64,000 bases of DNA from Bacteroidota bacterium (lineage in GTDB: Bacteria > Bacteroidota > Bacteroidia > AKYH767-A > 2013-40CM-41-45): contig SHNE01000044.1 in the NCBI GenBank assembly GCA_004295015.1, positions 3,998 through 67,997 of the forward strand, read 5' to 3'. Position numbers and translations under genes: made by a program. Below the pieces are notes generated by a model. The model did no database searches and had not been told where the DNA came from. It worked only from the letters and a program-made list of their open reading frames with translations. Shown here one piece after another: positions 10,898 to 17,871 of the stretch; positions within the stretch are counted from its first letter, which is position 1; every line of letters begins with the position of its first letter.

Positions 10898-11070
10898 GCT
10901 GCAAATTAGGCTTTTATTCTAAACTAATTGTTGATTTTTATGCTCTCTATAATGAAGCATTTGGCTAAGGAATACTGATCGACCGATTCAATTGTTATTT
11001 TATTCCTTATTTTTCTTTTGTAAACTGAAGTATATCCCTATTTTTGATCGATACCATTATCCCAAAAGCA

Positions 11071-11622
11071 ATGCCGGGCCCTGACATGTACAAATTGTTT
11101 AATCAGATGGATGAGGATAATATTATCCTTTCCTTCAAGGGCAGTATCAGCAAAGAGTTACTTTCTTCGATTTACGATATCATGGAAACGCGTCTGGATC
11201 AAACCAGCGATGATCAGCAAAGAAAGAAGAAATTTTACCATATCCTGGTGGAGAGTTTACAGAATATCTTTCATCATATGGAAGGCGTAAGTAGTGTAGA
11301 AAAAGGCAGTTTAGACAAAGAGGCTATGTTTATGGTAGGTTACCATCCTGCTACCGGTTACAGAATCCTGACAGGTAATTTTATGAAGAGTGATGAAGTA
11401 CCTGCTTTGGAAGAGAAACTGAAAAAGATAAATACCCTAAAGCCGGATGAGCTAAGAGAATATTACCGGGAAAAACTTGGTAGTACGGAACTCAGTGACC
11501 GTGGAGGTGCCGGATTGGGTTTTATTGATATGGCTCGTAAATCAGGGCAGAAGTTGGAATTTCATTTTCAGCCGGTAGAGAAGGGAATACATTTTTTTAC
11601 TTTCTCCGTTAGTATACGTTAA
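11071..11622 (+). CDS. SiaB-like protein kinase with a GHKL/anti-sigma-kinase-like fold
   Basis: ELSDRGGAGLGFIDMARKSGQKLEF resembles a G2-box ATP lid. It is divergent from the PP2C gene and immediately followed by a DUF1987 gene. The ORF track starts at a TTG at 11044; I prefer the ATG at 11071. Confidence 0.5.
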   Translation: MPGPDMYKLFNQMDEDNIILSFKGSISKELLSSIYDIMETRLDQTSDDQQRKKKFYHILVESLQNIFHHMEGVSSVEKGSLDKEAMFMVGYHPATGYRILTGNFMKSDEVPALEEKLKKINTLKPDELREYYREKLGSTELSDRGGAGLGFIDMARKSGQKLEFHFQPVEKGIHFFTFSVSIR

Positions 11623-11635
11623 AAAAAGAAGCAAT

Positions 11636-12019
11636 ATGGATCCTTTAATTATTGAAGAAAGTATTAAAACACCAACAATTTCATTCGATGCCGGCTCCGG
11701 TGTTCTGGAAATAAAAGGCAAATCTATTCCGGAGAATTCGCTGGAATTTTATAAACCTGTCTTCGATTGGTTGGACAAGTACACATCAAGTCCTGCACAG
11801 TCAACAGAGTTTCGCGTTCAATTGGAATATTTTAATACTAGCTCCAGTAAATGCCTGCTCGATCTTTTTCGCAAACTTGAAGCTACTGCTACTTCCGGAA
11901 AAAGCAAGGTGAAGGTAAGCTGGTTCTATGAAGCCGACGATGAAGACATGATGGAGGCCGGTGATGATTATCAGGCCTTGGTGAAAATTCCTTTTGAGTT
12001 GATAAAAGTGGAGGGTTGA
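11636..12019 (+). CDS. DUF1987 / SiaC-like partner-switch protein
   Basis: The SIPENSLEFYKPVFDWLDKY and QLEYFNTSSSKCLLDLF motifs match the DUF1987 (SiaC) signature as I recall it. The size, 127 aa, is typical. Confidence 0.55.
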   Translation: MDPLIIEESIKTPTISFDAGSGVLEIKGKSIPENSLEFYKPVFDWLDKYTSSPAQSTEFRVQLEYFNTSSSKCLLDLFRKLEATATSGKSKVKVSWFYEADDEDMMEAGDDYQALVKIPFELIKVEG

Positions 12020-12068
12020 GAAATTTCGCATTGGCTTATTTATTTAAGTATAATTTTTTTGGGGCTTC

Positions 12069-12416
12069 ATGACCGCACAAAACAACCACATCAACTACAT
12101 CGAGTTCAAGGCCATTGACCTTGAAAAAATAAAATCTTTTTATTCAACAGCCTTTGGCTGGACCTTTACTGATTATGGCCCGGGATATGTTGCTTTTGAA
12201 GAGAGCGGATTACAGGGAGGCTTTGAAAAAACGGATGCAAATATTGTAAATGGGGCTTTGGTTGTATTGTATCATCAAGACCTCATAATGTTAAAAGATA
12301 AAATTAAGGATGCAGGCGGAAGAATCTCCAAAGACATTTTTTCTTTTCCTGGTGGAAAACGTTTTCACTTTGTGGATCCGTCAGGGAATGAACTGGCAGT
12401 TTGGTCGGATAAATAA
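12069..12416 (+). CDS. VOC-family (glyoxalase/bleomycin-resistance fold) protein
   Basis: 115 aa. YIEFKAIDLEKIKSFYSTAFGWTF...YVAF has the betaalphabetabetabeta glyoxalase pattern. Confidence 0.65.
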   Translation: MTAQNNHINYIEFKAIDLEKIKSFYSTAFGWTFTDYGPGYVAFEESGLQGGFEKTDANIVNGALVVLYHQDLIMLKDKIKDAGGRISKDIFSFPGGKRFHFVDPSGNELAVWSDK

Positions 12417-12419
12417 GTT

Positions 12420-12458
12420 GAAATCTGACATTTGCCTGTAGTCTGATTTCATTTTTTA
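12420..12458 (+). terminator. Rho-independent terminator after the VOC gene
   Basis: GAAATCTGAC-atttgcctgta-GTCTGATTTC (9 of 10 bp stem) followed by ATTTTTT. Confidence 0.5.
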
Positions 12459-12581
12459 CATTTTTATGAAGTACAATTTATATTCGGATTGATATACCTA
12501 ATTATTTTTGAGTCTTGACAATTTAATACCTTTGCCTGGCGTTATTCCATTCTTTTAAATAGTCTGCTAAACAATATTCCC

Positions 12582-13949
12582 ATGAATGATAATAAACTTT
12601 CATTTTTTGAAAAGGCAAATAACTGGATTCGGCAATCTGTCACGATCCGTTTAATGACAATGGGAATTCTGATCCTTCTCTTATTGATACCCGTATCAAT
12701 GGTAGAAGATCTCATACGGGAAAGAGAATATAGACAAGAAGAAGCAATAAGGGAAGTCAGTTCGAAGTGGGGCGAGAAACAAACCATTACCGGAATGGTG
12801 CTAACGGTTCCTTATAAAAGTTATGAGAAAGTTTTTGAAACCGAGAGTAATGAAAAGTACAAATTAATAGAATCCGTTAAGTTCGCACATTTTTTACCTG
12901 AACTGTTGAACATCGATGGAGAAATTTCTCCTGAGATCAGATATCGGGGTATTTATGAGGTAATTGTATACAATTCAAAAGTTAGGTTGACCGGGAATTT
13001 CCTGATGCCGAATTTTGACGAGTGGAAGATAGCCAAAGAGAATATTATCTGGGATGATGCTTATTTATCATTGGGTCTTTCAGATTTGAGAAGTATTCAG
13101 GAAAACATTTCGGTGGAATGGAATAACAAACAATATTTTTTCAATCCGGGTGTAGAATCTAGCGATGTAATTCAAACCGGAATAAGTACACGGCTTTCAT
13201 TGAACCATACCGACAGTCTGGGAGCAAATTTCATTTTTTCTCTCAATCTGAATTTTAATGGCAGCTCGGGATTAAGTTTTATTCCTCTTGGGAAAGTCAG
13301 CAAGGTGAATATTAAATCAAAATGGCAGAACCCGAGTTTTGACGGAGCTTTTCTACCTGATAATAGAGAGATTAACGCTGATGGTTTTACAGCCAACTGG
13401 GAAGTATTGCATTTGAACCGTTCGTACCCTCAAAGTTTCAGAGGAAGTGTTGAAGGAATAGAGGAATCATCTTTTGGAGTTAATCTGATTGTACCGGTTG
13501 ATGAATACCAAAAAAGTATGCGATCGGCCAAGTATGCAGTAATGTTCATTGCCTTAACTTTTTTAATTTTCTTTTTCGTTCAAATTCTGAATGAAGTAAG
13601 AATTCATCCTATTCAATACATCATAGTTGGTTTGGCTCTATGTGTTTTTTATACATTGCTAATAGCTTTGTCGGAGCACATTGCTTTTAACTATAGTTAT
13701 CTAATAGCAAGTGTTTCCATTATCGCATTGATTACTCTTTATGCAAAAAGTATTTTCAAAAGTTCAATGCTTACAGGTGTGATGTGTTTGATTCTTAGTA
13801 TACTTTATCTCTTTATATTTTCCATTCTACAAATGGAAGATTATGCTTTACTTATGGGAAGTGTGGGTCTTTTTATTCTTCTGGCAATTGTGATGTATTT
13901 GTCAAGAAAAATAGATTGGTATGCGATAAAAACAAAAGGAGGAGAATAA
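12582..13949 (+). CDS. creD: Cell-envelope integrity inner-membrane protein CreD
   Basis: N-terminal helix, then LIREREYRQEEAIREVSSKWGEKQTITGMVLTVPY and a GIYEV motif, a C-terminal cluster of five or six transmembrane helices, and 455 aa. This matches CreD-family architecture. Confidence 0.7.
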   Translation: MNDNKLSFFEKANNWIRQSVTIRLMTMGILILLLLIPVSMVEDLIREREYRQEEAIREVSSKWGEKQTITGMVLTVPYKSYEKVFETESNEKYKLIESVKFAHFLPELLNIDGEISPEIRYRGIYEVIVYNSKVRLTGNFLMPNFDEWKIAKENIIWDDAYLSLGLSDLRSIQENISVEWNNKQYFFNPGVESSDVIQTGISTRLSLNHTDSLGANFIFSLNLNFNGSSGLSFIPLGKVSKVNIKSKWQNPSFDGAFLPDNREINADGFTANWEVLHLNRSYPQSFRGSVEGIEESSFGVNLIVPVDEYQKSMRSAKYAVMFIALTFLIFFFVQILNEVRIHPIQYIIVGLALCVFYTLLIALSEHIAFNYSYLIASVSIIALITLYAKSIFKSSMLTGVMCLILSILYLFIFSILQMEDYALLMGSVGLFILLAIVMYLSRKIDWYAIKTKGGE

Positions 13950-14135: not shown

Positions 14136-14711
14136 ATGACTTCGCACCCGGTACTCGTTAAAAATATGGTTTGTCATCGCTGTGTACTCTCAGTCGAGGA
14201 TATATTAACTAAGGAAGCTATTCCATTTAACGCTGTGCTCATTGGGGAGATTCATTTGGCTAATCCAATAACCGTTGAGGAGAAAGAGAGACTTTCTGCC
14301 AAGTTGAAAGCTGTAGGTTTTGAATTAATTGACACTCATTTAACCGGTTTAATTGAAAAGATCAAATTGCTCGTCACACGGAAGGCTCGTAACGAGGTTG
14401 ATAAAAAGGAAGCGAAGCTAAATCTATCGGCATATCTTTCAGATAAACTTAATTACGAATATACCCATCTTAGTAGCCTGTTTTCATCTGTCGAAGGACG
14501 AACCATCGAGAAGTATTTTATTGAACAAAGGGTTGAAAAAGCCAAAGAACTCCTTATTTATGGCCAAATGACCTTGTCTGAAATAGCTTTTGAACTTGAC
14601 TATAGTAGTACCGCGCATCTTTCAACCCAATTTAAAAAATTGACCGGTTTGACCCCTTCCTACTTCAAAGAGGTGGGAATTGCCAAGCGAAAAGCGCTTG
14701 ATAAAGTATAA
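14136..14711 (+). CDS. Metal-sensing transcriptional regulator: N-terminal heavy-metal-associated (HMA) domain fused to an AraC-type HTH
   Basis: VLVKNMVCHRCVLSVEDILTKEAIP...VGFELI fits the M-x-C-x-x-C ferredoxin-like HMA fold. The C-terminal LSEIAFELDYSSTAHLSTQFKKLTGLTPSYFKE is an AraC HTH. Confidence 0.65.
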   Translation: MTSHPVLVKNMVCHRCVLSVEDILTKEAIPFNAVLIGEIHLANPITVEEKERLSAKLKAVGFELIDTHLTGLIEKIKLLVTRKARNEVDKKEAKLNLSAYLSDKLNYEYTHLSSLFSSVEGRTIEKYFIEQRVEKAKELLIYGQMTLSEIAFELDYSSTAHLSTQFKKLTGLTPSYFKEVGIAKRKALDKV

Positions 14712-14747
14712 TCCCAATATTATATAATCCTTACCCAAAGTACTATA

Positions 14748-14778
14748 ACACCCAAGCTGGGTGTCGGCTATACTTTTG
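14748..14778 (+). promoter_or_regulatory. Dyad-symmetric site ACACCC-aagct-GGGTGT plus a candidate Bacteroidota -7 box (TACTTTTG). Together they form a putative operator and promoter for the Cys-rich gene.
   Basis: Inverted 6-bp arms at 14748-14764. TACTTTTG at 14771-14778 lies 28 nt upstream of the ATG at 14806. Confidence 0.35.
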
Positions 14779-14805: not shown

Positions 14806-14979
14806 ATGAAAAACGCCAATGTAAAGAGCCAAAGCGCTCTTGAAAACAGCCAGTCCACTTGTGGCAGAGCAAATTGTACATGCGAGACTTGCATGTGTGA
14901 AACATGTACCTGTGGTACTTCAAAATCCGGAAATTGCACTTGCGGTACTTCGTGCAACTGTTCAGGCTCTTGCAGCTAA
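14806..14979 (+). CDS. Cys-rich 57-aa miniprotein, a metallothionein-like candidate metal-binding peptide
   Basis: ATG at 14806, TAA at 14977. The translation is MKNANVKSQSALENSQSTCGRANCTCETCMCETCTCGTSKSGNCTCGTSCNCSGSCS, with 14 Cys in C-x-C/C-T-C repeats. A strong terminator follows. It is missing from the ORF track because it is under 60 aa. Confidence 0.5.
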   Translation: MKNANVKSQSALENSQSTCGRANCTCETCMCETCTCGTSKSGNCTCGTSCNCSGSCS

Positions 14980-14986
14980 TTATTTG

Positions 14987-15022
14987 AATAGCCGCTTCTT
15001 CGGGAGCGGCTATTATTTAAAC
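14987..15022 (+). terminator. Rho-independent terminator after the Cys-rich ORF
   Basis: Perfect 10-bp inverted repeat AATAGCCGCT-tcttcggg-AGCGGCTATT, then a T-rich ATTTAAA stretch. Confidence 0.55.
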
Positions 15023-15046: not shown

Positions 15047-15838
15047 ATGAAAAATATATTACTAATCCTGGTTATTCTCTTTTTGGCCTCTTGTAAGAAA
15101 GAGGAATTTAATCCCAACCTCACAAAGGAGTTTTCCATTCACGCAAGTTCCAACGGTGCAAACTATGATATTAAAGTTGCACTTCCTGAAAACTATAATC
15201 CTGAAGCAACACAATATTCTACAATATATCTCCTGGATGGAGAAGAGATTTTTTCATTTGTCGCCGAAAAATCAAAAAAAATAAGTTCTGATTTGTCTGT
15301 TTTAAATGCCTTGGTAATAAGTATAAGTTATGGTAACGACAGAGTCAATGATTATACTCCTTCAAAGGCAAGTGAAGGAGATGGAGGAGCTGAAAATTTT
15401 GCGCTCTTTATCAAAAATGACTTGATACCAAGGATAGAGAGTGATTTTGCCGCAGACACTTCCAGAAGAAGTCGTGTTATCCTCGGACATTCCTTCGGTG
15501 GCTTGTTTGCAGCTTATGCATTTACAAATCATAATAGCGATTTCGGGAATTACATTATGCTTAGTCCTTCTATTTGGTACGACAATGAGATCATGCTAAG
15601 ACTTGAGCAGGAGAACCGCAATACGAATAAGTACAATGATCAATTGGTTTTCATGGGTATCGGTTAAATTGATAACAATGGAAGAATGCTCGCGCCCTAT
15701 CAGGCTTTTTATAATCGATTAAAAGACAATTATCCTTCAATTAAAATTACGAGTCATATTGAACCACACCTTGATCACATGGGGTCTGAAAAGCCTAACA
15801 TTATAGAAGGTCTTAATTTTTATTTTAAAAACCGTTAA
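15047..15838 (+). pseudogene. Lipoprotein esterase (alpha/beta hydrolase, putative esterase/Fes-IroE-like family) interrupted by an in-frame TAA at 15665-15667
   Basis: Lipoprotein signal (MKNILLILVILFLASC). It has the GHSFGG nucleophile elbow. The reading frame continues in the same frame after the TAA (IDNNGRMLAPYQAFYNRLKDNYP...HLDHMGSEKPNIIEGLNFYFKNR), which is the expected C-terminal part of this esterase family including the catalytic His region. Confidence 0.55.
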
Positions 15839-15881
15839 TCAAATTCAATTTATCAAAATCATATAAAAGTAACACACACAC

Positions 15882-16496
15882 ATGAAAATCTTCAAAATAT
15901 TACCCGTCCTAATAATCCTGTTGAATCTTTCAACATCAGCAAAGAAAAATGACTCTATCGGATTGGCACAGCAAAATTACCCGATATCAATTATAAGTAT
16001 TGAGCCTTCTATTGGACTAAAGCCATCTCCTATGTCTGATCTGATAATTAGCAATCTTGTTCAGTGGAATTTAATGAAAAGACTAAGTATTGTGTCTCAT
16101 ACTTCCTACTCTTTCAACAATGTATTTCTCAGAGAATTTAATTATGTGGAAACAGATTATAACTATTCCCTGGGACAGAAATTTGGAATCGGAACTTCTC
16201 TGTATTCAAATCGCTCTTCGCACACATTTTCTTTGATGGCCGGAATAAAATACGACTCCTATAAAGAGACTTTGGCTAACCCTGAATTTGAAAAGGTCTC
16301 GGCATCTGCAAATTCTCTAAGTCCTGACTTTGGATTGTTATATAATTTGAAAAAGGGAAAGAAAAAATACTATTTTAGCTTCAGCATGTATCTTCCTCTT
16401 TACCCATATCCGATGATAAGTTTAGATACTTATAGTCTGAGCGGAAACCTGGCGAATATCTCTATGGAATTCGGAGTAGGAATCCGATTAAAATAA
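15882..16496 (+). CDS. Small secreted hypothetical protein (204 aa), possibly an outer-membrane beta-barrel
   Basis: Signal peptide (MKIFKILPVLIILLNLSTSA). Alternating hydrophobic pattern and a Y/S/G-rich composition. Confidence 0.45.
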   Translation: MKIFKILPVLIILLNLSTSAKKNDSIGLAQQNYPISIISIEPSIGLKPSPMSDLIISNLVQWNLMKRLSIVSHTSYSFNNVFLREFNYVETDYNYSLGQKFGIGTSLYSNRSSHTFSLMAGIKYDSYKETLANPEFEKVSASANSLSPDFGLLYNLKKGKKKYYFSFSMYLPLYPYPMISLDTYSLSGNLANISMEFGVGIRLK

Positions 16497-16542
16497 TTAA
16501 ATAAAGGCAACCTGATAAGATTAATCATTTCATCTCAGCATT

Positions 16543-17871
16543 ATGAAAAATCAAAACAAAGTAGTAGAGTATAATTTTGAGGCAAGTGAATTCAACTGGG
16601 ATATAGCTCCCGGGAAAACGATCAAAGCATGGGGTTTCAACAAGCAGCTCCCCGGTCCGGTATTAAGAGCAAACGTTGGCGATACACTTGTTGTTCGGCT
16701 GACCAATAATCTTACACAACCAACTTTGATGCATTGGCATGGATTGAGGATACCTGCCTTCATGGACGGGACGGCTGAAGTTCAGAGACCAATCGAACCC
16801 GGTGAAGTTTTTGAATACCGCTTTGTATTACCTGATGCAGGAACATTTTGGTACCATTCGCATGTCAATGAAACGGTACAAATGGAAAGAGGATTGTATG
16901 GTGCAATCATAGTGGAGGATCCCACTGACCCGATTATGGATGATGAAAAAATATTCATGATTGATGATATGAAATTGGACGAAGCAAATGAATTCACAAC
17001 TCCAGCCTGGTCATTACCCCGCCTTGTTGAAAGACACGATGGACGGGAAGGAAAGACGCTGTTGATCAATGGAAAAGAAACTCCACAAATTCATATTTAT
17101 GCCGGGCAAACTGAAAGATGGAGGTTTGTCAATTCTTCCAGTGCAAGATATTTTGTCTTGTATTTAAATGGGAAAGAATTTAAAATTATAGGAACCGACG
17201 GCGGGCTTCTTGAGCATCCACGAACAGTTACTCAGGTTTTAATAACTCCCGGCGAAAGAATCGATATTGCAGCCGGACCTTTTGAAGAGGGTGAAACATT
17301 TTCCATGGAATCTTTACGATATAACAGAAGTACTTTTTTCAGACCGAAGCGTCAAACGTTTGCAAGCATTGTCGTTGGAAGTCCTAAAGCGTCTGTGGCA
17401 TTTGTCCCCGATACATTGAGAAAGATAGAACCTTTGGCAGATCAACATGCACCTGTAAACCGAAAAATAAAATTATCTGTCGGACCGAGTTTAAAGAACG
17501 GATTAAATTTTCTGGTGAATGGCGATATGCATGTTCAGGATAAACCGGTGAAGGTCGGGGAACTTCAGGTTTGGGAAGTGTCTAACCCCAGTCTGATGGA
17601 TCATCCTTTTCACTTGCACGGTTATTTCTTCCAGGTTATCGAAGAGAACGGAAAAGTACCCGAATACCTTGCATGGAAGGACACCGTTAATTTACTTCCA
17701 AGGTCAAAAGTAAAAATTGCATGGATGCCTGATAATCGTCCCGGTACATGGATGTATCATTGCCATATTATCGAACACCATGCTGCAGGTATGATGGCTA
17801 GTTTTGAAGTAGTTGATGGGACGAAGCCGGTTGGGGAGGAGACACATGCAAGAACGCATCATCATCATTAA
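16543..17871 (+). CDS. Multicopper oxidase (laccase/CueO-like) without a signal peptide and with a C-terminal His-rich tail
   Basis: All four copper-ligand motifs are present: HWHG, WYHSH, HPFHLHG and HCHIIEHHAAGMM. The protein ends in HARTHHHH. An upstream in-frame stop at 16522 rules out a longer N-terminus. Confidence 0.85.
   Translation: MKNQNKVVEYNFEASEFNWDIAPGKTIKAWGFNKQLPGPVLRANVGDTLVVRLTNNLTQPTLMHWHGLRIPAFMDGTAEVQRPIEPGEVFEYRFVLPDAGTFWYHSHVNETVQMERGLYGAIIVEDPTDPIMDDEKIFMIDDMKLDEANEFTTPAWSLPRLVERHDGREGKTLLINGKETPQIHIYAGQTERWRFVNSSSARYFVLYLNGKEFKIIGTDGGLLEHPRTVTQVLITPGERIDIAAGPFEEGETFSMESLRYNRSTFFRPKRQTFASIVVGSPKASVAFVPDTLRKIEPLADQHAPVNRKIKLSVGPSLKNGLNFLVNGDMHVQDKPVKVGELQVWEVSNPSLMDHPFHLHGYFFQVIEENGKVPEYLAWKDTVNLLPRSKVKIAWMPDNRPGTWMYHCHIIEHHAAGMMASFEVVDGTKPVGEETHARTHHHH

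Follow-up and report, generated by a model that had tools for sequence, protein, structure and literature searches.

SmtA/BmtA, which constitute metallothionein family 14 (PF02069), occur with the ArsR-type repressor SmtB. Mycobacterium tuberculosis has a Cu(I)-binding metallothionein, MymT, whose gene (mymT) belongs to the RicR regulon along with those for a multicopper oxidase (mmcO) and a lipoprotein (lpqS). Activators of the AraC/XylS family bind to direct-repeat half-sites upstream of the promoter, as exemplified by I1-I2 for E. coli AraC and by the class II arrangement for MarA/SoxS/Rob. SmtA/BmtA and MymT are the only two bacterial metallothionein families that have been studied functionally (PMC7387436, PMC12193353), and MymT is named in reviews as a cytoplasmic Cu sink (PMC7387436, PMC11672702). 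A 2024 review that covers how bacteria sense metals (PMC11672702) describes no characterised metal sensor of the AraC family in its accessible portion, where the term “AraC” has 0 occurrences. The handling of copper and other metals in Bacteroidota is poorly understood.

The window analyzed here (i.e. the whole 64-kb stretch of DNA) contains, on its forward strand, an ORF at 14806..14979 with an ATG start and a TAA stop. This ORF had been proposed in an initial annotation as a 57-aa, metallothionein-like gene that had escaped gene calling, and its start, stop, and translation were exactly as quoted there. The Cys content given (25%) was too high: 12 of the 57 residues are Cys (21.1%). Aromatic residues and His are absent. 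The cysteines are spaced C-x4-C-x-C-x2-C-x-C-x2-C-x-C-x7-C-x-C-x3-C-x-C-x3-C, and the Cys-rich C-terminal core is preceded by a hydrophilic N-terminal stretch of 15–20 residues. No other ORF of 40 aa or more in the window had 8 or more cysteines making up 15% or more of its residues; when 64-kb windows were simulated (Markov-1), any such ORF was present in 2 of 200, and about 0.01 are thus expected by chance. The AF2 model of the apo-peptide had a pLDDT of 48.7 and was devoid of secondary structure, i.e. no autonomous fold was predicted. This result is compatible with metal-thiolate clusters, but it is not evidence for them.

Queried with the single peptide, a word-indexed homology search returned zero matches. 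Exhaustive phmmer searching of 1.84 billion representatives returned three, namely two family members and one spurious, repetitive protein of 405 aa. The family became visible only via the loci of the AraC-type regulator encoded upstream, whose homologues were used to collect the sample of loci, and then through a profile search; the family profile retrieved small, unnamed peptides only. For the window peptide, there was no family match in Pfam or NCBIfam and no match in a profile search of PDB sequences, and nothing was detected in Rfam around the locus; NCBIfam likewise gave no match for the relatives. Neither the window peptide nor 46 of its relatives matched PF02069 (BmtA/SmtA) at E-values up to 10, and none of them reached the gathering threshold of the eukaryotic metallothionein models in Pfam (PF00131, PF12749, PF01439, and PF02068). 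Weak matches were all that the 46 relatives gave in Pfam, and the models concerned were those of metallothioneins: PF12749 (4 relatives, best E-value 7.6e-4), PF02068 (2), and PF01439 (1). Hence, neither the peptide nor its relatives could be matched significantly by sequence to an established metallothionein family.

Relatives of the peptide in the databases were either designated “hypothetical protein” or not called at all, and the peptides of RefSeq isolate genomes were missing from a collection of 15 billion proteins. The contention that the gene was missing from the ORF annotation was therefore borne out, and the omission is general across the family; the locus cleanly illustrates how annotation can lose a small gene that is conserved.

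A refutation test had been set beforehand, whereby the gene would be rejected if orthologous loci did not preserve its frame or its Cys codons. The gene passed this test. A Cys-rich small ORF was located on the same strand, ca. 90–136 nt past the regulator's stop codon, in 64 of 80 loci, and 74 family members were found in 70 of 81 loci. Five cysteines (C24, C26, C29, C31, and C34) were invariant, and the codons in the invariant columns were split nearly equally between TGT and TGC (e.g. 41/33 and 42/32). Residues other than Cys were also kept (G, N-P-N, and T). With respect to its nearest relatives, the peptide gene had dN/dS values of 0.16–0.30. The 57-codon ORF is a genuine gene under purifying selection.

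The family occurs widely across Bacteroidota, in samples from soil, freshwater, activated sludge, and the sea. Its cultured carriers include Ferruginibacter paludis CECT 8366 (L015) and Flavobacterium soyangense CGMCC 1.13493 (L049). Its members are 37–61 aa long and have a Cys content of 20.5% (72 members), with CxC and CxxC motifs, a hydrophilic N-terminus, and no signal peptide. An aromatic residue occurs within the Cys domain in only 7 of 72 peptides, and only 7 of 72 have a His. Two forms can be distinguished, a short one with 8 Cys and a long one with 12–13 Cys; the spacing in the short form is 4-1-2-1-3-1-2, compared to 4-1-2-1-2-1-7-1-3-1-3 in the window peptide.

These data also bear on the notion that no separate gene exists, the ORF being either a chance occurrence or the 5' end of a longer esterase gene initiating at a TTG at 14840. 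On a Logan contig that is 99.94% identical to the window, the gene caller indeed placed the start of the esterase gene at the equivalent of 14840, overlapping the peptide ORF in another frame. However, the lipoprotein signal of the esterase-like protein (MKNILLILVILFLASC) is at 15047, the two ORFs are separated by a terminator hairpin, and the peptide's frame is conserved even in loci that lack any esterase gene; the codon-level evidence and the estimate for chance occurrence favor a coding gene. Both the N-terminal extension and the chance ORF are effectively refuted by the conservation, neighborhood, codon, and simulation data, and virtually no likelihood is assigned to them. On the near-identical contig, a wrongly extended, overlapping ORF of the neighbor had been called in place of the peptide.

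Two direct repeats precede the gene. The first (14713..14727, forward strand; CCCAATATTATATAA, family consensus CCCAAAATTnTatAA) begins 2 nt past the stop codon of the regulator, and the second (14734..14749, forward strand; CCCAAAGTACTATAAC, family consensus CCCAAAGTanTgTAACA) abuts the position of a would-be -33 element. As written for the family, the repeats are CCCAAAATTnTrTAA and CCCAAAGTAnTrTAAC, exactly 21 bp apart. Of 73 peptide genes of the family, 71 were preceded by a conserved repeat 1, and its distance from repeat 2 was 21 bp at all 71 of 71 sites. A Bacteroidetes-type -7 promoter box (TACTTTTG; consensus TAnnTTTG) is located at 14771..14778 on the forward strand, where it is the only TAnnTTTG between 14001 and 16571. 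Its position is fixed in nearly all family members, with 37 bp separating the start of repeat 2 from the start of the box at 61 of 67 sites, and an A-rich leader connects it to the small ORF. The gene thus does have a promoter of its own, as had been suggested, but one of the Bacteroidetes type and not sigma-70-like. A consensus scan for sigma-70-type promoters yielded weak candidates only; the conserved element is the Bacteroidetes -7 box. There is no TTTG -33 element upstream of the box, and the promoter is therefore probably activator-dependent.

The spacer between repeat 2 and the -7 box contains a GC-rich inverted repeat (14748..14764, forward strand; ACACCCA-agc-TGGGTGT). Repeats of this kind, CACC(C)-N3-6-(G)GGTG, were present in long-form loci and absent from short-form loci. 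The inverted repeat in the window overlaps a terminator-like site reported by the consensus terminator scan.

The bipartite operator was matched only once in the window. In the other loci, it accompanies the peptide gene even when the regulator is not adjacent, and also in tandem duplications, in which whole operator-peptide-terminator cassettes are repeated. When metagenomes were scanned for the operator in an unbiased fashion, a family peptide followed 35 of 59 sites. The same operator was found directly upstream of a multicopper oxidase gene or its esterase-like operon in other loci (L012, L013, L049, L050, L060, L063, L064, L070, L079, L101, and others). The cassette architecture is thus conserved, and the operator is common to the peptide and the multicopper-oxidase operons. 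For further targets of the operator, namely an unknown lipoprotein, a TonB-dependent receptor, and an esterase-like lipoprotein, a connection with copper is not obvious.

On the 3' side, a hairpin (14987..15014, forward strand) begins 7 nt after the ORF. Its TTCG loop closes a 12-bp stem, in which 10 perfect Watson-Crick pairs at the base are followed by one G-U and one C-G pair, and its folding energy is -19.7 kcal/mol; the terminator with a 10-bp perfect stem described in the initial annotation is thus real. The hairpin was missed in the consensus terminator scan because the T-tract behind it (ATTTAAA) is weak. Nearly every family member is followed by a strong hairpin within 60 nt, although the sequence varies by locus, which suggests that the peptide gene is a monocistronic unit. 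Conserved operator, promoter, and terminator elements therefore travel with the peptide gene, in keeping with the proposal that it forms an independent, tightly regulated transcript.

Three genes follow on the forward strand: one for an esterase-like lipoprotein (Pfam Esterase; 15047-15667, interrupted, continuing at 15686-15838), one for an unknown signal-peptide protein (15882-16496), and one for a multicopper oxidase (Pfam Cu-oxidase_1/2/3; 16543-17871). The peptide gene had been said to sit between the regulator and the multicopper oxidase. The regulator does adjoin it, but the oxidase is two genes away, the esterase-like and unknown genes intervening. No -7 box of their own was found for the genes in 15047..17871, and they are probably co-regulated by read-through, which is inferred and has not been demonstrated.

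A strong hairpin 7 nt after the ORF, followed by an operon without its own -7 box, might also be expected if the small ORF were a leader peptide whose run of Cys codons, together with the hairpin, attenuated the downstream esterase-like/multicopper-oxidase operon via the ribosome. Against this, the gene downstream of the peptide differs widely among loci and is often convergent; in most loci, it is another gene or resides on the opposite strand. Also, tandem duplicates comprise complete operator-peptide-terminator cassettes, there is no sign of an alternative antiterminator pairing, and cysteine supply has no connection with the functions of the downstream genes. The conserved non-Cys residues and a dN/dS well below 1 likewise count against such a leader, and attenuation is regarded as very improbable.

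The regulator gene (14136..14711, forward strand) encodes 191 aa. Its C-terminal part is an AraC/XylS double helix-turn-helix (Pfam HTH_18, 1.1e-18; HTH_AraC, 1.4e-8), and the PDB sequence and Foldseek matches to this part were AraC-family DNA-binding domains. The AF2 model of the regulator had a pLDDT of 88.8 (87–94 for residues 11–60 and 78–82 in the flanking blocks). In this model, residues 4–65 adopt a beta-alpha-beta-beta-alpha-beta arrangement (E4-9, H14-26, E31-35, E38-41, H47-59, and E63-65), for which Foldseek returned the CopZ structures 2qif and 6ff2 (probability 1.00, TMt 0.64–0.67), the best being the Cu4-bridged CopZ dimer 2qif. The N-terminal motif MVCHRC (M11-x-C13-x-R15-C16) places the CxxC pair at the junction of beta1 and alpha1 in the model, and M11, C13, R15, and C16 were invariant in 30 regulator homologues (MxCxRC). 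The Pfam HMA model (PF00403) did not match the regulator at E-values up to 1, so the HMA assignment rests on the predicted structure. To the extent that this prediction is accurate, the regulator combines a CopZ-like domain with an AraC-type DNA-binding one, and its earlier designation as a metal-sensing-type regulator is supported by the invariant CxxC in a modeled CopZ-like fold. No inference on metal specificity can be drawn from the MxCxxC motif.

The regulator was the sole gene consistently linked to the peptide gene. The annotated clusters among the recurrent neighbors were DJ-1/AraC, DUF6010, a YHS-containing protein, an HMA protein, DUF2147, DUF3703, and GNAT, in addition to the esterase-like lipoprotein and the multicopper oxidase; some other clusters had no Pfam match or were not scanned. 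HMA and YHS proteins were frequent neighbors of the family loci, and one related locus (L079) harbored a Csp-like ORF of 113 aa with 19 Cys. Genes for efflux by P-type ATPases, CusCBA, or CzcD were not conserved in the neighborhoods, which is unusual for a classical metal-resistance island. The large neighboring ORFs that were checked for metal efflux proved to be unrelated (e.g. secreted repeat proteins, a PEP-utilising enzyme, and a sulfatase-like protein).

An alternative reading, in line with the lack of conserved metal efflux pumps nearby, is that the peptide buffers oxidants or electrophiles (HOCl, reactive electrophiles, peroxide) with thiols that are sacrificed, and that the CxxC of the regulator acts as a redox switch instead of a metal site. 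One CxxC pair constitutes the only invariant Cys residues of the regulator and could equally serve as such a switch; RclR of E. coli, a Cys-based sensor of the AraC family, would be an analogous case. Among the frequent neighbors are regulators of the DJ-1/PfpI-AraC kind and genes of the glyoxalase type, both with links to electrophile stress, and metallothioneins themselves are known scavengers of oxidants. Nevertheless, the CxxC occupies the canonical MxCxxC metal-loop position of a predicted CopZ-like fold, multicopper oxidases carry the same operator, and HMA and YHS proteins often adjoin. The regular CxC/CxxC spacing in two Cys clusters is also typical of metal-thiolate clusters and not of generic thiol buffers. 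A thiol buffer is accordingly considered unlikely, but it retains some plausibility.

The conserved neighbors also speak to the bacteriocin-like alternative mentioned in the initial annotation, i.e. that the ORF encodes a RiPP or bacteriocin-like precursor with a leader and a modified, exported Cys core (chalkophore- or sactipeptide-like, for example). Its size is typical of such precursors, and a hydrophilic N-terminus is followed by a Cys-rich C-terminal core. However, the recurrent neighbor clusters that could be annotated include no maturase or exporter (radical-SAM, MNIO/DUF692, cyclodehydratase, peptidase, and ABC-exporter genes were all lacking), and the downstream genes vary widely and are often convergent. 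Neither a signal or leader peptide nor a double-glycine motif is present in the peptide itself, whose N-terminal region is not hydrophobic. This alternative was rejected, and only a very slim chance is accorded to it.

The explanation that is favored, and that is thought probable, is that the peptide serves as a metallothionein-like sink for toxic metal in the cytoplasm, with Cu(I) as the probable metal, under the control of a metal-sensing AraC-type activator; metal binding and induction are inferred. The classical metallothionein traits of low molecular weight (< ~10 kDa), richness in Cys as CxC/CxxC, and few or no aromatic or His residues are met, while metal binding and metal induction, also among these traits, remain inferences. 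The term “metallothionein-like” is thus apt with regard to composition, Cys motifs, and the absence of aromatic residues, but the peptide does not belong to any known metallothionein sequence family. Cu(I) is the most likely metal, as suggested by the operator shared with multicopper-oxidase operons and by the frequent HMA and YHS neighbors, although its identity is inferred, and Cd, Zn, Ag, and Hg are not excluded.

Under this explanation, the 12 cysteine thiolates of the peptide would sequester soft metal ions, and the peptide gene would be the main target of the adjacent regulator through its putative CopZ-like MxCxxC site and AraC-type DNA-binding domain. Metal would load the CxxC site, possibly bridging two monomers (a metal-dependent dimerization that is inferred). 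Two regulator molecules would then fill the direct repeats spaced by 21 bp, at about -72 to -36, and could bring RNA polymerase to the promoter, with its consensus -7 box and no -33 element; that the regulator activates rather than represses the promoter is likewise inferred. The product would be a short monocistronic mRNA with its 3' end at the strong hairpin. Some read-through is probable on account of the weak T-tract, and it may drive the esterase-like, unknown, and multicopper-oxidase genes. No experimental evidence for translation, metal binding, or metal induction is available here, and all three are therefore inferred.

Whether the locus represents both a new bacterial metallothionein family (in short, 8-Cys and long, 12–13-Cys forms) and a new class of metal sensor (CopZ-like plus AraC, acting as a metal-dependent activator on an operator with 21-bp spacing) is evenly balanced in our estimation. 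This broader proposal includes a small regulon (metallothionein, signal-less multicopper oxidase, and lipoproteins) that is convergent with mycobacterial RicR/MymT/MmcO. Neither the peptide family nor an HMA-AraC sensor was found to be described in the searchable literature; subscription journals were outside of its coverage, and absence is not proven. If the inference holds, this would be a third, abundant family of bacterial metallothioneins, and the sensor would have an architecture absent from current surveys of metal sensing, as far as the accessible portion of PMC11672702 indicates. The sharply defined operator/promoter cassette would be directly testable, or reusable as a metal-inducible switch or biosensor in Bacteroidota.

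Comparison with described systems can be made part by part. With CopZ/Atx1-type HMA chaperones, the N-terminal domain of the regulator shares, in its predicted structure, the beta-alpha-beta-beta-alpha-beta fold and the MxCxxC at beta1-alpha1. It differs in being fused to a DNA-binding domain and in lacking a significant match to Pfam HMA. Like AraC/XylS activators, the regulator has a double helix-turn-helix, and its presumed operator consists of two direct repeats 21 bp apart, the proximal one abutting -33/-35; unlike them, it has a 70-aa CopZ/HMA-like sensor in place of a cupin or other ligand-binding domain, and the promoter is of the Bacteroidetes sigma-A type.

With regard to the peptide, cytoplasmic storage of Cu(I) on many thiolates, which is inferred here, is reminiscent of the Csps. 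Those proteins, however, are Cys-lined four-helix bundles of ca. 120 aa that form tetramers, whereas the peptides have 37–61 aa and no predicted secondary structure. The last five Cys of the short form are spaced C-x-C-x3-C-x-C-x2-C, a pattern shared with Neurospora crassa CuMT and the beta-domain of mammalian metallothioneins. When the family was compared to fungal and mammalian metallothioneins using hhalign, a local match of 13 columns over CxCGxxCxC was obtained (probability 72%), and a few relatives, but not the window peptide, weakly matched Pfam Metallothio_Euk. All of these matches were short, compositionally biased, and below family thresholds. Convergence on the geometry of a metal-thiolate cluster is a more likely source of this resemblance than common descent. 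Like SmtA/BmtA, the peptide would be a small bacterial metal-sequestering protein encoded beside its own metal sensor. SmtA, however, has a zinc-finger-like fold, His ligands, and aromatic residues, whereas the peptide family is essentially without His and aromatics and has no predicted fold; the regulators are from different families, with derepression in the case of SmtB and probable activation here.

A further parallel is MymT. No sequence similarity to MymT was detected in the exhaustive phmmer search of 1.84 billion representatives or in the family profile search. There, a CsoR-type repressor is used in another phylum, as opposed to a predicted CopZ-like + AraC activator here, and MymT has 7 Cys plus His, compared to 12 Cys and no His in the window peptide. 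Both are nonetheless cytoplasmic, Cys-rich peptides of ca. 50 aa with CxC motifs, encoded by small genes that long went unannotated, and in both systems one dedicated sensor appears to co-regulate the peptide with multicopper oxidase and lipoprotein genes.

The peptide ORF (14806-14979, forward strand) runs from ATG to TAA, and its translation is identical to the 57-residue sequence of the initial annotation. Twelve cysteines were counted (21%, not the 25% claimed there), with no aromatic residues and no His. It was the sole ORF in the 64-kb window to reach 40 residues, 8 Cys, and a Cys content of 15%; any ORF passing the same thresholds was present in only two of 200 Markov-1 simulated windows, which served as the null. 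The gene had indeed been missed by annotation: the exact peptide was absent from 15 billion proteins, as were the peptides of the RefSeq isolates Ferruginibacter paludis and Flavobacterium soyangense. Forty relatives from a profile search had no Pfam domain and were named "hypothetical protein" at best. On L081, a Logan contig 99.94% identical to the window, the peptide was uncalled, and the start of the downstream esterase had been pushed 5' to a TTG (window position 14840), so that the extension overlaps the peptide ORF in a different frame. The lipoprotein signal at 15047, the hairpin in between, and preservation of the peptide frame in loci lacking the esterase refute the reading of the ORF as an N-terminal extension of the esterase.

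A word-indexed protein search with the peptide alone returned no match, and phmmer, run exhaustively over 1.84 billion representatives, recovered just two small relatives. Loci were therefore gathered via homologues (61-81% identical) of the regulator, the 191-residue AraC-type gene at 14136-14711 (forward strand) upstream of the peptide. The resulting 80 genomic loci came from Chitinophagaceae, Saprospiraceae, Ferruginibacter, Flavobacterium, and other Bacteroidota. In 64 of the 80, a small Cys-rich ORF starts about 90-136 nt past the regulator stop, on the same strand; in the remaining carrier loci it lies somewhat farther off, or upstream. The family totals 74 members across 70 of 81 loci. 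A short form (37-41 residues, 8 Cys) has the consensus ...KCxNPNCTCxNCNCGSxCTCxxCK, and a long form, to which the window peptide belongs, has 50-61 residues and 12 or 13 Cys. Of the Cys columns, five are invariant. TGT and TGC codons occur at near-equal frequency in the conserved Cys columns (e.g. 41/33 and 42/32), and dN/dS to the closest relatives is 0.16-0.30, a signature of selection acting on the protein. Loss of the frame or of its Cys codons at orthologous loci had been named as grounds for refutation, and the ORF survived that test. An attenuation leader peptide is contradicted by a dN/dS below 1, by the conservation of non-Cys residues, and by downstream genes that vary and are often convergent. 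The ORF is a real gene with near certainty.

Decayed family copies were also observed, with Cys replaced by Y, S, or F (L025, L026, L033, and L016) or with a frameshift (L036). A second type of small Cys-rich ORF (...TDSEGKNCLCGC(V/N)CCH; 33-38 residues, 7-10 Cys) occurs in L037 (5356-5457) and L047 (5248-5364). The latter copy is flanked by genes for an unknown signal-peptide protein and a TonB-dependent receptor and has no recognizable operator.

The architecture of the cassette was derived by aligning, on the ATG, the 130 nt that precede each family member. Two direct repeats form the operator (repeat 1, consensus CCCAAAATTnTatAA, 14713-14727; repeat 2, consensus CCCAAAGTanTgTAACA, 14734-14749), with 21 bp from the first to the second in 71 of 71 sites. 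Repeat 2 starts 37 bp before the start of a Bacteroidetes -7 box (TAnnTTTG; TACTTTTG, 14771-14778) in 61 of 67 sites, across a GC-rich spacer whose sequence is variable and unconserved. This box occupies a fixed position in nearly all members and is followed by an A-rich leader of 22-39 nt up to the ATG at 14806. A TTTG -33 element is absent, and repeat 2 abuts the position where it would lie, the geometry expected when a promoter depends on an activator (class II-like). The stretch separating repeat 2 from the -7 box contains a GC-rich inverted repeat (ACACCCA-agc-TGGGTGT, 14748-14764), which is kept, as CACC(C)-N3-6-(G)GGTG, solely in long-form loci and could serve as the regulator gene's terminator or as another site for protein binding.

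The proposed terminator with a 10-bp perfect stem was located at 14987-15014, where ten perfect pairs followed by G-U and C-G make a 12-bp stem with a TTCG loop (-19.7 kcal/mol). A strong GC-rich hairpin of locus-specific sequence occurs within 60 nt 3' of nearly every family member; a T-run follows in most loci, and the T-tract in the window is weak. The operator is retained by peptide units located away from the regulator (L043, L058, L061, and L066), and the whole operator-promoter-peptide-terminator unit is tandemly duplicated in L016, L031, and L049; it behaves as a module. The duplicated complete units, tandem or nearby, were mapped to 3010-3438 in L016, 4674 and 6417 in L031, and 4672 and 5000 in L049. 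Orphan operators were seen in L030 and L045.

The regulator begins ...NMVCHRCV, and M11, C13, R15, and C16 are invariant among its homologues. Pfam recognized only AraC helix-turn-helix domains, and database relatives are all labeled generically as AraC-family. In an AF2 model (pLDDT 88.8), residues 4-65 form a beta-alpha-beta-beta-alpha-beta domain with the MxCxxC at the beta1-alpha1 junction, followed by a canonical AraC DNA-binding domain. When searched against the PDB with Foldseek, the C-terminal half matched AraC-family DNA-binding domains, and the N-terminal domain matched CopZ metallochaperones (probability 1.00, TMt 0.64-0.67), including the Cu4-bridged CopZ dimer 2qif. Such an HMA-like/AraC sensor architecture is apparently undescribed; AraC-family sensors go unmentioned in the available text of a 2024 survey on metal sensing in bacteria (PMC11672702). 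On comparative evidence, dedicated control of the peptide gene by this adjacent regulator is well supported.

Downstream of the peptide lie an esterase-like lipoprotein gene (from 15047), a gene for an unknown signal-peptide protein (15882-16496), and a multicopper oxidase gene (16543-17871). The peptide had been placed between regulator and oxidase; the regulator is indeed directly upstream, but the oxidase is two genes off. Within the window the bipartite operator occurs once. In the 80 loci it lies 5' of the peptide 70 times, directly 5' of the esterase-like gene heading an esterase/unknown/multicopper-oxidase operon five times, directly 5' of a multicopper oxidase four to five times, and of a DJ-1/PfpI-AraC regulator twice. 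Metagenome contigs, TARA ocean samples among them, were scanned by the operator anchor independently of the regulator. The 59 sites found were followed by a family peptide in 35 cases, an esterase-like gene in about six, an unknown lipoprotein in about 11, and an oxidase, a TonB-dependent receptor, and a small signal-peptide protein in one each. The unknown lipoprotein (about 185 residues, MKALTILSVFILLFISCQ...) takes the peptide's place in L088, L090, L092, L093, L103, L106, L111, L118, L128, and L135, recurs at L035 (4653-5210), and is a putative additional, uncharacterized regulon member. Other recurring neighbors are an HMA lipoprotein and YHS-domain, DUF2147, DUF3703, and DUF6010 proteins. 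Neither an efflux ATPase nor an RND pump is conserved nearby. Upstream in the window (11044-13949) are DUF6272 and SiaC-like proteins, a glyoxalase-family protein, and CreD, none obviously metal-related; the cassette thus lies outside a classical metal-resistance island.

Several features of these neighbors were recorded. The esterase-like gene (15047-15838) is cut by a TAA at 15665-15667 where L081 has GAA and an intact gene; three G-to-T differences from L081 fall within 9 nt (15665, 15670, and 15673), and the remainder of the gene is the ORF 15686-15838. This may reflect a pseudogene, variation between strains, or an error in the sequence. The esterase matches Pfam "Putative esterase", with weak NCBIfam similarity to enterochelin esterase. 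Since operons under the operator contain the esterase with the oxidase or, in some loci, a TonB-dependent receptor, there are hints of catecholate/siderophore chemistry tied to copper stress. The oxidase (16543-17871) has no signal or TAT peptide, an upstream in-frame extension is impossible, and its C-terminus is a His-rich tail (HARTHHHH); a metagenome homologue (L101) likewise starts without a signal peptide. It would be unusual for a multicopper oxidase in the cytoplasm to share its regulation with a Cys peptide that is also cytoplasmic. In the related locus L079 (43-384, reverse strand), a 113-residue ORF whose 19 Cys fall in CxxxC-type helical repeats resembles a copper storage protein (Csp/DUF326-like) and adjoins a DJ-1/AraC regulator and a multicopper oxidase.

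Under the proposed mechanism, metal-loaded regulator would occupy both direct repeats, possibly as a metal-bridged dimer, and turn on a strong, otherwise silent promoter. A short monocistronic mRNA would yield a cytoplasmic peptide whose thiolates sequester metal, and part of the transcription would read through to the multicopper oxidase and its partners. Metal binding, induction, activation over repression, and dimerization are all inferences. Read-through into the esterase-like, unknown, and oxidase genes is likewise inferred, and is plausible because no -7 box for them was found between 14779 and 16571 and the hairpin T-tract is weak. Cu(I) is the most likely effector, given the multicopper oxidase link and the CopZ-like sensor, although the MxCxxC motif does not fix metal specificity. 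That link and that fold also speak against a peptide that scavenges oxidants or electrophiles and is controlled by a CxxC redox switch, a reading that remains possible but was considered unlikely. The best-supported inference is instead a metallothionein-like sink, probably for copper, a role that is untested. It rests on the family's Cys content (20.5%), regular CxC/CxxC spacing, few aromatics and His, a hydrophilic N-terminus without signal peptide, and the lack of an autonomous fold (AF2 pLDDT 48.7 for the peptide). The window peptide has 7 Cys in one cluster and 5 in the next, joined by a GTSKSGN linker, an arrangement suggestive of two metal-thiolate clusters, the binding itself being inferred. 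A RiPP or bacteriocin precursor is disfavored, as no leader or signal motif is present and no maturase, protease, or exporter genes are among the conserved neighbors. The cassette is directly testable in cultured carriers.

The initial metallothionein-like reading is supported; it stands on composition and spacing, but not on any match to known metallothionein families: no Pfam model, NCBIfam model, or PDB sequence matched the window peptide. A few of 46 relatives gave sub-threshold Pfam matches, solely to metallothionein families (PF12749, PF02068, and PF01439). In the short form, the final five Cys are spaced as in Neurospora CuMT and the mammalian beta-domain, and hhalign gave a local match; convergence is a better reading of this likeness than homology. 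In reviews from 2020 and 2025 (PMC7387436, PMC12193353), the bacterial metallothioneins named are confined to SmtA/BmtA-type proteins and MymT. BmtA/SmtA membership was ruled out by the absence of an HMM match, of His, and of a fold, and no sequence similarity between MymT and the window peptide was detected. As far as was found, with subscription journals outside coverage, neither the peptide family nor the HMA-AraC sensor has been described. The mycobacterial RicR regulon, which includes a lipoprotein alongside MymT and the multicopper oxidase MmcO, is the closest functional parallel to the present set of peptide, oxidase, and lipoprotein. The peptides are best filed as a new sequence family inside the functional class of metallothioneins.
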